From NCBI RefSeq assembly GCF_048403405.1, contig NZ_CP183129.1: a DNA stretch of 64,000 nucleotides; one strand, given 5' to 3'. This DNA comes from Escherichia coli. Its GTDB lineage: Bacteria; Pseudomonadota; Gammaproteobacteria; Enterobacterales; Enterobacteriaceae. This document shows, one piece after another, positions 61,901 through 64,000 of the stretch (its first letter is position 1; every line of letters starts with the position of its first letter). The position numbers are program-made.

Positions 61901-64000
61901 GTCTTCGCAACGGAGATAGCCTGCGGGTCGCGATCGATCGCCAGCAAACGCCCCTCTTCGCCAAGCTGCGAGAGGATCAGACGTGAGTGACCACCGCGAC
62001 CAAAAGTCCCATCAATGTAGATGCCATCAGGACGGATATTGAGGCCATTAACGGCTTCATCCAGCAGCACCGTAGTATGTTTATAGTTTTCCATCATTTT
62101 ATAGAGACAAGTCCTGCAGTCGCTCCGATAAGTCTCCGGTAGCCAACTGCTCTGCGTCGATATCTTCCTTGACCTGTTGATGCCAGGTTGTTTCATCCCA
62201 CAGCTCAAACTTGTTGAACTGTCCAACCAGCATCACTTCTTTTGTCAGCCCGGCATGTTGCCGCAGTACTGGCGCGATTAACAATCGACCTGCGCCATCC
62301 ATCTGACATTCGCTGGCATGACCTAACAGTAGGCGCTGCACACGGCGCTCAACCGGGTTCATGCTCGACAGACGCGATAATTTTTGCTCGATAATTTCCC
62401 ATTCAGGCAGGGGGTAAAGCAGCAGGCACGGGTGATGAATGTCAATGGTGCAAACCATTTGACCGGCAGCGTTCTCAAGCAGCTGTTCCCGATAACGGGT
62501 AGGCACTGATAAGCGCCCTTTGCTGTCGAGATTGACTAACGTTGCTCCCCGGAACATGCCAGCCTCACCCCTTATTCCCACTTTGCCCCACAATTTCCCA
62601 CTGAAAGGAGTTTACGGAGCGGAGGAAAAGCTTGTCAAGCCAGTCACAAGGCATACCGAGGTAAAAAACCCGATGTTTACGGCTAATATCAGCGTTGTTT
62701 ATTTTACGTCCAACGTGCGAAGCAAATTAACGTTATGAATAGCTGTAAGAAAAAATCCCTCATCGTCATCACCGTTTTAAAATGACTCACTATTTTCCAC
62801 AGCAAATATAAAGTGTCAGTTTGCGACGCGAGCGGCATTTTAGGACATATCTTCCCCGGTTAACAGTCCCTGTTGCGTCTGTGTGGCGCTTGATGCCAGC
62901 GGGTTTGCGCAAAAGCAAAGAAAAGTGTTTGTTAAATCGGCAATTCATCTCTGCATGTAACAAAATAATGCAAAAACGCGCTATCGATATCACTTAATTA
63001 TTGTGAATTTCAGCTGGTGAGGTAATTAACGGGCAGGTTTAAAAGCATTTATCAATAATAGCCAGGAATAGTCTTATTTACTTTAAGGATATTGATGTCC
63101 ATTCCCGTACTCAACGCGCCAGAGAGAAATTCACCTGGCGCGTATTTTTGTTCGCGGCTTAGCTACGGCTGAGCACGCCGCGGCGATAGAGATTACGTTT
63201 AATGCGCGTTAAACCAGGTTTTGGCTTACGCGGTTCGTCCAGGCTTGCCAGGACAATCTCCAGCACACGCTCTGCGACATCGCGGTGACGTTGAGCCACT
63301 GCCAGCACCGGGCACTGTAAGAAGTCGAGCAGTTCGTTATCGCCAAAGGTGGCAATTGCCAGGTCAGAAGGCAGTTTGCCGTCACGACGTAGCGTGACAT
63401 CCATCACCCCTTGCAACAACGCAAACGACGTTGTGAACAGTGCCTGCGGCATCGGATGCGTTTCCAGCCATTTTTCGAATAACTGGGCAGCCGCCTCTCG
63501 CTCATAGCTGTTGGCATAAAGGAAATGCACTTCGCGCGGATCATCTTTCCAGGCAGTACGGAAACCTTGTTCACGCAGGAAGCTGACAGAAAGCTCCGGC
63601 AGCGCGCCAAGATAAAGTACCGTCTCGGCGGGAAACTTACGTAACTCTTCCGCCAGCATTTCGGCATCATCCTGATCGGCACCAACCACGCTGGTGAAAT
63701 GTTCACGATCGAGGGCGCGGTCCAGCGCGACAATCGGGAACGGGTCGTTAGCCCAGCGTTGATAAAAAGGATGCTCAGGTGGCAACGACGTCGAAACAAT
63801 AATGGCATCAACCTGACGCTGTAAAAGATGCTCGATACAACGCATTTCGTTGTCGGGCTGATCTTCCGAGCAGGCAATCAGCAGTTGATAACCCCTTTGC
63901 CGCGCCTGGCGTTCAAGATAGTTAGCGATGCGGGTATAGCTGGTGTTCTCCAGATCGGGGATCACAAGACCAATAGAACGTGTGCGTCCAGCACGAAGCC

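Follow-up and report, generated by a model that had tools for sequence, protein, structure and literature searches.

The 64,000-nucleotide stretch of Escherichia coli DNA analyzed here (contig NZ_CP183129.1; hereafter, the window) carries genes of the dcw cluster (ftsI, ftsL, rsmH, and mraZ) on its minus strand, with a gap and then the end of cra upstream of them. We conclude that this gap is very probably the control region of the dcw (mra) operon, comprising the promoter Pmra, the operator bound by MraZ, probable weaker upstream promoters, and putative further cis-acting elements. The first dcw gene, mraZ (positions 62099 to 62557, minus strand; 152 amino acids), was assigned from its open reading frame (ORF) and translation and from the RefSeq annotation, and it encodes the repressor that binds the repeats described below. 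Its ATG is at 62557 and the cra stop codon is at 63161 to 63159, leaving exactly 601 bp (62558 to 63158) between them. A first-pass annotation of the window had described this gap as roughly 600 bp long and AT rich; the length was accurate, and the AT richness proved to be moderate (42.8% GC, compared with 51.9% for the window), with a minimum of 32% GC in segment 62961 to 63060. Across the family, the gap measures 553 to 733 bp and mostly 560 to 660 bp. RefSeq lists no feature within it in K-12 MG1655 or FDAARGOS_497 (100% identical to the window).

For comparison, we used the 80 closest Enterobacteriaceae loci from a genome scan, which together with two E. coli loci gave a set of 82; a protein search for further relatives covered matches with at least 85% identity, and four extra lineages were added to the locus set. 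Conservation was profiled over 29 genera, percentages of invariant columns were calculated over 35 genera, and the fourfold-degenerate sites of mraZ served as the neutral reference. Variation within the species was surveyed in complete E. coli genomes, of which 5,423 of 5,426 contained the stretch. The background frequency of the triple repeat was estimated from 100 dinucleotide shuffles of the window.

Read on the coding strand, the sequence ahead of mraZ runs TTGACA-agcttttcctccgctccg-TAAACT-cctttca-GTGGG-aaatt-GTGGG-gcaaa-GTGGG-aataaGGGGTGAGGctggc-ATG. A sigma-70 consensus scan identified the Pmra core promoter (62609 to 62638, minus strand; 10/12 matches) as TTGACA at 62638 to 62633 and TAAACT at 62614 to 62609, separated by an 18-nt spacer. 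A Shine-Dalgarno sequence, GGTGAGG (62563 to 62569, minus strand), can be read 5 nt before the ATG and is nearly invariant in the alignment. Between these elements lie the three repeats that the first-pass annotation had placed 10 bp apart just upstream of mraZ, and this arrangement was confirmed: CCCAC occurs on the plus strand at 62577 to 62581, 62587 to 62591, and 62597 to 62601, corresponding on the minus strand to GTGGG boxes at 62601 to 62597, 62591 to 62587, and 62581 to 62577. The full pattern CCCAC-N5-CCCAC-N5-CCCAC was found once in the window and in none of the 100 shuffles, and the looser GTGG-N6-GTGG-N6-GTGG was likewise single in the window, while the CCCAC pentamer alone was not enriched (99 observed versus 114 expected).

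These repeats have the properties by which MraZ operators are defined, namely, three or more direct repeats built on a GTG(G/T) core (PMC12957436), here GTGGG three times at 62601 to 62577, and 6-nt spacers after each 4-nt core, giving a 10-bp period. The array is positioned just past the −10 box (62614 to 62609) and at the transcription start (box 1, 62601 to 62597), is conserved in relatives, and adjoins an mraZ gene encoding both DXXXR motifs (DSKGR at residues 11 to 15, including K13 and R15, and DGAGR at residues 87 to 91). Each MraZ box is contacted by one MraZ subunit via Lys13, Arg15, and Arg86 (PMC12957436). The promoter and the in-phase GTGG-N6-GTGG-N6-GTGG core were retained in all 82 loci, and invariant columns made up 75% of the operator and 81% of Pmra, spacer included, versus 3% of the mraZ fourfold sites. 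The third box ends in G in E. coli only and reads GTGGT/C/A elsewhere; the conserved unit is therefore GTGG and not GTGGG. The annotation had named lack of conservation of the repeats as grounds for refutation, and this did not arise, the three in-phase GTGG cores being conserved in every locus.

Direct binding and repression by MraZ are attributed to Eraso et al. (2014) in PMC7761207 and PMC12957436, and PMC7761207, citing that study, places the E. coli repeats downstream of the Pmra −10 box, where they mediate repression of Pmra. The position of the repeats agrees with the operator as described in these secondary citations, which bears out their assignment to MraZ autoregulation by the first-pass annotation. 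Three GTGG boxes with a 10-bp period, past the −10 box, over the start, and upstream of mraZ likewise characterize the MraZ operator of E. coli Pmra and its equivalents in Bacillus, Mycoplasma, and Burkholderia. There is no difference of substance from the described E. coli operator, the window being the E. coli example itself; the minor differences are the GTGGG form of the third box, specific to E. coli, and a start located 45 nt rather than 38 nt from the ATG. Because the repeats agree with the published MraZ operator, the operator finding is known biology. Our results support the view that the operator and promoter of mraZ were already known and uphold the annotation's central interpretation; the operator only confirms textbook-level knowledge and provides a firm anchor for annotating the window.

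Two further observations concern the leader between the operator and mraZ. An 8- to 10-nt insertion between the third box and the Shine-Dalgarno sequence is present in Buttiauxella, Cedecea, Dryocola, Siccibacter, Pseudescherichia, and others (e.g., locus L055, 1947 to 2000); it is about one operator period long and G rich (GTGGTGGAAAGGGGAATTTAAGGGTGAGG). Judging from the sequence, AAGGGG at +10 may represent a degenerate fourth box, possibly in all genera.

The transcription start of Pmra (62601 to 62602, minus strand) was located immediately before the first repeat in two public data sets, in keeping with the 5′-end mapping check that the annotation had proposed. Rapid amplification of 5′ cDNA ends (5′-RACE) placed it at K-12 position 89589, giving a 45-nt 5′ untranslated region (UTR), with the same 45 nt in Klebsiella pneumoniae (PMC3415461 supplement), and Cappable-seq placed it at K-12 position 89590, or 62601 in the window, with a score of 27.2 (PMC4782308 supplement). 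The start is thus an A/G directly before the first repeat in two independent 5′-end data sets and two genera. The repeats begin 1 to 2 nt past the mapped position (62602/62601), and with a start 45 nt from the ATG, box 1 begins at +1/+2. The 93-nt promoter/operator sequence was identical in 3,508 of the 5,423 E. coli genomes, and 1,914 differed at one spacer base (62621, the K-12 allele). At this position, A replaces C in K-12 and roughly a third of E. coli genomes (CCTCAGCTCC versus CCTCCGCTCC); C is found in most other genera sampled, T or a shifted CCCTCG spacer in a few, and the K-12 A in none. Apart from this position, the 18-nt spacer shows almost no variation, an uncommon property in promoter spacers.

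Sigma-70 RNA polymerase starts at Pmra (TTGACA-18-TAAACT), at the A/G just before the first GTGGG, and MraZ, the product of the first gene, is reported to bind the three GTGG boxes, which lie at about +2 to +26. With one box per helical turn, all boxes are on one face of the DNA. Binding there would block initiation or promoter escape, resulting in negative autoregulation of mraZ and of the downstream cell wall and division genes.

The phased G-runs could alternatively act mainly as a G-quadruplex, in the nontemplate strand or the 5′ UTR, and not as a protein operator, although we consider this highly improbable. The G-runs of the operator and the Shine-Dalgarno sequence do form a standard quadruplex motif, GGG-N7-GGGG-N6-GGG-N5-GGGG (62599 to 62568, minus strand), one of three in the window, and one Staphylococcus aureus paper connects G-quadruplexes with mraZ. 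However, the three-tetrad motif is confined to the two E. coli loci among the 82 because the third box is GTGGT/C/A elsewhere, so conservation does not extend to the quadruplex motif. It is the protein-binding unit, GTGG at a 10-bp phase, that is conserved, and folding with quadruplex energies does not pick the quadruplex.

The first nine dcw genes depend on Pmra, and the control of its activity is poorly understood beyond MraZ autoregulation and weak claims for PdhR and CRP. PdhR gave a faint gel shift on a probe spanning 62659 to 62616 (PMC3265435); this stretch (62616 to 62659, minus strand) holds a CRP-like sequence, TGTGACTGGCTTGACA (62648 to 62633), overlapping the −35 box, and mraZ appears in a CRP target list from genomic SELEX. 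We rejected the CRP-like TGTGA-N6-TGACA at the −35 box as a candidate site: the match was not above chance in the window, and TGTGA was retained only in Escherichia and Citrobacter.

Upstream of Pmra, Cappable-seq detected three more sense-strand starts in the gap (PMC4782308 supplement), at K-12 positions 89143 (window 63048; score, 6.2), 89237 (window 62954; score, 2.1), and 89360 (window 62831; score, 9.4), all on the minus strand. The last, which we call P2, is preceded by the hexamers CTGTTA (62866 to 62861) and TAAAAT (62842 to 62837), separated by an 18-nt spacer within the accepted 16 to 18 bp, and is followed by the invariant sequence GTCGCAAACTGACAC; P2 and the conserved block A discussed below together occupy 62800 to 62866 (minus strand). 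The −35-like CTGTTA matches the consensus at 3/6 positions and TAAAAT at 5/6, the start lies 6 nt past TAAAAT, and the discriminator, GCCGCTC, is GC rich. TAAAAT was invariant in 79/79 loci, and its distance from CTGTTA was fixed in 70/72. The sigma-70 consensus scan did not call P2 because its −35 element is weak. The invariant TAAAAT, the CTGTTA at a fixed distance, and the start 6 nt downstream point to an upstream promoter, and from public 5′-end data and conservation, we infer that P2 is an unannotated promoter conserved across the family and the best supported of the weaker upstream sense promoters. A genome-wide reporter assay likewise found two distinct promoters in the mraZ promoter region, at coordinates that were not stated. 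The first-pass annotation had suggested that the gap might hold more promoters or a small RNA, and the Cappable-seq starts and the reporter assay favor the first of these; a discrete small RNA finds no such backing (no Rfam match and no 3′ end, as detailed below). Transcription from P2 would produce a 274-nt leader running through Pmra and the operator.

The conservation profile revealed four blocks well above the background in the gap, namely, A (62850 to 62800), B (62760 to 62715), C (62973 to 62956), and D (63085 to 63060). In blocks A and B, the mean frequency of the major base was 0.85 and 31 to 38% of columns were invariant, while the sequence between them (0.58 to 0.62) was at or below the level of the mraZ fourfold sites (0.68). 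Block B (62715 to 62760, minus strand) reads TTTTTCTTACAnnTATTCATrrCsTTAAtTTGCyTCG, and its 3′ part is complementary to block A. Block C, TTGyATTATTTTGTTACA (62973 to 62956), is accompanied by the weak Cappable-seq start at 62954 (together, 62954 to 62973, minus strand). Block D (63085 to 63060) includes an RcsAB-box-like sequence, TAAGACTATTCCTG (63076 to 63063), and is followed by TATTAT (63060 to 63055) and the Cappable-seq start at 63048 (together, 63048 to 63085, minus strand). P2 accounts for only part of block A, as the first 25 transcribed bases (GTCGCAAACTGACAC and beyond) are conserved as strongly as the promoter itself.

The P2 −10 box (block A) and block B were 101 to 104 bp apart, as were block B and the Pmra −35 box; the distance from block C to block A varied from 118 to 138 bp. 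Such tight spacing over neutral-looking sequence suggests that length or helical phase is constrained. The blocks may be cis-regulatory elements held by strong purifying selection and subject to a spacing constraint resembling one on helical phase, acting either as protein-binding sites or as parts of a folded leader RNA. A literature search with the block sequences themselves matched no paper. Being as conserved as coding DNA and spaced to within 2 bp across the family, the blocks mark where to mutate in looking for the missing inputs into Pmra.

Several observations weigh against parts of this reading of the gap. Among the 5,423 E. coli genomes, one, that of strain WS3294A (NZ_CP035819; locus L083), carries a 5-bp deletion of CAGTG at 62599 to 62603. 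The deletion covers the mapped start of Pmra as well as GTG in the first MraZ box, and box 1 is thus dispensable for viability in this isolate. In strain 4/4 (NZ_CP023826; locus L084, 2818 to 4016), IS5 is inserted at CTAA inside TCCTAAAATG (window 62840 to 62843), in the P2 −10 region, and parts this region from the −35 element and from blocks C and D; P2 is thus dispensable for viability in a natural isolate. The Enterobacteriaceae bacterium ESL0689 (locus L086) has kept three GTGG boxes and a Pmra whose spacer is changed, and no block A, B, or C was recognizable in its 523-bp gap. The P2 start was not reported in the 5′-RACE set for E. coli or K. pneumoniae (PMC3415461 supplement), and its Cappable-seq score was a third of that of Pmra (9.4 versus 27.2). 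None of the mraZ papers examined ties a protein or factor to blocks A to D. Finally, an older mapping, as quoted in PMC7761207, puts the Pmra start 38 nt rather than 45 nt upstream of the ATG; with either mapping, the boxes extend over the start and the initial ~25 bases of the transcript.

Blocks A to D could be DNA sites at which transcription factors or nucleoid proteins act on Pmra and P2 at a distance, a reading that we regard as possible but less likely than not. Spacings of ~102 bp would keep the sites on one helix face for looping or wrapping, with a NarL/FixJ-type regulator, such as RcsB with a partner, as a candidate. This idea draws strength from the A-to-B and B-to-Pmra −35 spacings, held at 101 to 104 bp while the intervening sequence drifts at the neutral level, and from the invariance of block A even where its would-be RNA partner is mutated. 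In block D, TAAGACTATTCCTG has two mismatches to the RcsAB-box consensus (TAAGAATATTCCTA) and is the sole match with up to three mismatches in the 64 kb, but about 3 (3.0) such matches are expected in the window by chance. Block B starts with TTCTTACA, an EvgA-like half-site, and block C shares nine bases, ATTTTGTTA, with the GAD box; these resemblances, like that of block D, are leads only. Because several consensus sequences were tried, a partial match was likely. Moreover, the mraZ papers examined link no factor to the blocks, which are neither palindromic nor repeated as sites for dimeric factors usually are.

Distant operator pairs that loop DNA include gal OE/OI and lac O1/O3. The blocks resemble them in lying ~100 bp apart with a spacing constant to within 2 bp, but they lack a common palindromic operator, A and B being alike only as a 10-nt inverted repeat, GCAAAyTrAC. 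In a by-eye check of the gap against consensus sequences for sigma-54, sigma-E, sigma-28, sigma-32, LexA, PhoB, PurR, Cra, TyrR, ArgR, and IHF, none was convincing. A DnaA-box-like TTTTCCACA (62793 to 62801, plus strand) was discarded since it is not conserved.

Alternatively, blocks A and B may pair with each other in an RNA helix, within a conserved domain that the initial ~117 nt of P2 RNA would form; we advance this tentatively and consider it doubtful. The domain (62715 to 62831, minus strand) would consist of a closing helix, GCG..GCAAA with UUUGC..CGC (62829 to 62820 with 62726 to 62717), and a hairpin straight after ACUGAC (about 62815 to 62784). It would bury the 5′ end, stabilizing the long leader or serving as a regulatory RNA element of the dcw operon. 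Folding of these ~117 nt without constraints gave the closing helix in the minimum-energy structure of 32 of the 35 genera, with 93.5% of cells in the alignment paired and one pair running through GC, GU, and AU. However, column shuffles gave an equal percentage of pairing. Both strands of the helix are almost invariant, so high pairing follows from sequence conservation, leaving almost no covariation to judge. The variable cells favor a sense-strand RNA (44 of the G-U type versus 9 of the A-C type), as do the mean folding z scores (−1.96 for the sense strand, −0.84 for the antisense strand, and −0.62 for the downstream leader), although these scores are not independent because the same inherited helix is shared. 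The A × B duplex has a predicted energy of −14.2 kcal/mol, matched by 0.3% of shuffled B sequences, but 6.5% of 26-mers from the genome equal block B in their pairing with block A.

In 45 of 50 sources, a covariance model of the helix and hairpin matched each locus exactly once; it also matched once in the window (62713 to 62831). In the alignment based on this model, there were 9 double-change pairs versus 5.0 in shuffles, and no covariation measure was reached by any shuffle (0/500), but that alignment is fitted to the structure. For the hairpin in an unfitted alignment, the covariation score was reached by 3/500 shuffles, but the counts of covarying pairs and of pair types were reached by 127/500 and 243/500, respectively, and were not significant. 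RNAalifold on the whole 277-nt leader paired only the invariant promoter/operator sequence, with no compensatory pairs, and the full E. coli leader folded no better than shuffles (z = −0.26). The 45-nt mraZ UTR likewise folded no better than shuffles. In four lineages, the block B strand is mutated with no compensation in block A, which stays invariant. The first-pass annotation had recommended searching the upstream 500 bp for conserved structured RNA; the search yielded this ~117-nt candidate 5′ domain, for which covariation is suggestive only, and no Rfam match. We dismissed a long hairpin involving the 5′ half of block B ("P3"): minimum-energy folds had hinted at covariation, but the upstream partner was no more complementary than its own shuffles (mean z = −0.13), and pairing did not exceed 67% when the sequences were anchored and aligned without gaps.

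Should the pairing between blocks A and B be real, it would constitute a leader RNA not yet described, at a locus that ranks among the most studied in E. coli. Stem-loops at the 5′ terminus, such as that of the ompA 5′ UTR, stabilize mRNAs against RNase E and RppH. The proposed closing helix would be similar in that it is modeled to start at P2 +3, leaving two unpaired 5′ nucleotides; unlike a local hairpin, it has its partner ~100 nt away, and its sequence is conserved, not its pairing alone.

A discrete small RNA in the gap was not supported. A scan of 62300 to 63400 on both strands against Rfam 15 gave no match at E values up to 10, a sequence scan found no terminator-like site in the gap, and Term-seq mapped no 3′ end there, the nearest being inside mraZ (K-12 position 89783). 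At that position (window 62408), 149 nt into mraZ, Cappable-seq also lists a weak 5′ end, so the site may be a processing site or an internal terminator/promoter pair. In Rhodobacter sphaeroides, the dcw cluster has an extended 5′ leader with the small RNA UpsM (PMC5089854). The two systems have in common a long transcribed leader upstream of mraZ, which in E. coli would be the 274 nt from P2. They differ in that the E. coli gap shows no 3′ end, terminator-like site, or Rfam match, and the main promoter lies inside the leader, the P2 transcript being minor.

It is also very unlikely that the conservation reflects a small protein encoded in the gap, either by a 44-codon ORF (62838 to 62704) across blocks A and B or by short antisense ORFs. 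The 44-codon frame is open in E. coli, with a hydrophobic C-terminal half, and some genera keep an open frame of 42 to 67 codons. In most genera, however, and in Escherichia albertii as well, the frame stops after 9 to 26 codons, and the variable length of a T-run shifts the frame across block B. The blocks show no three-base periodicity in conservation, and ORF clustering gave no family with a consistent frame. This ORF and the other small ORFs were therefore rejected as broken in most genera, without a consistent frame, and without codon periodicity.

We suggest, with considerable reservation, that in Enterobacteriaceae a second, previously undescribed dcw control module lies 100 to 270 bp upstream of Pmra, in the form either of P2 with a ~117-nt folded domain made by pairing of blocks A and B or of a phased nucleoprotein complex on blocks A to D. 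If so, the module would couple a signal to the cell wall and division genes, such as growth rate, acting on the GC-rich discriminator, or envelope stress, acting by way of an RcsB-type factor, and P2 transcripts would have to pass the MraZ-occupied operator. The ESL0689 locus would amount to a natural "deletion" of this module.

At the cra end of the gap, a hairpin just past the cra stop codon (63114 to 63143, minus strand; fold energies, −21.5 and −20.3 kcal/mol; z = −2.3 and −2.4) is presumably the cra terminator; its sequence is not conserved outside Escherichia. Only two U residues follow it on the cra strand, and UAUUUUUGUU, a better U-tract, follows it on the opposite (plus) strand, as if the hairpin could also terminate transcription from the gap toward cra. 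Upstream of cra, in the interval separating it from ilvN, the RefSeq annotation of strain 4/4 includes a "fruR/shl operon leader peptide" of 28 codons (locus L084, 1327 to 1413), the equivalent of which lies past the end of the window.

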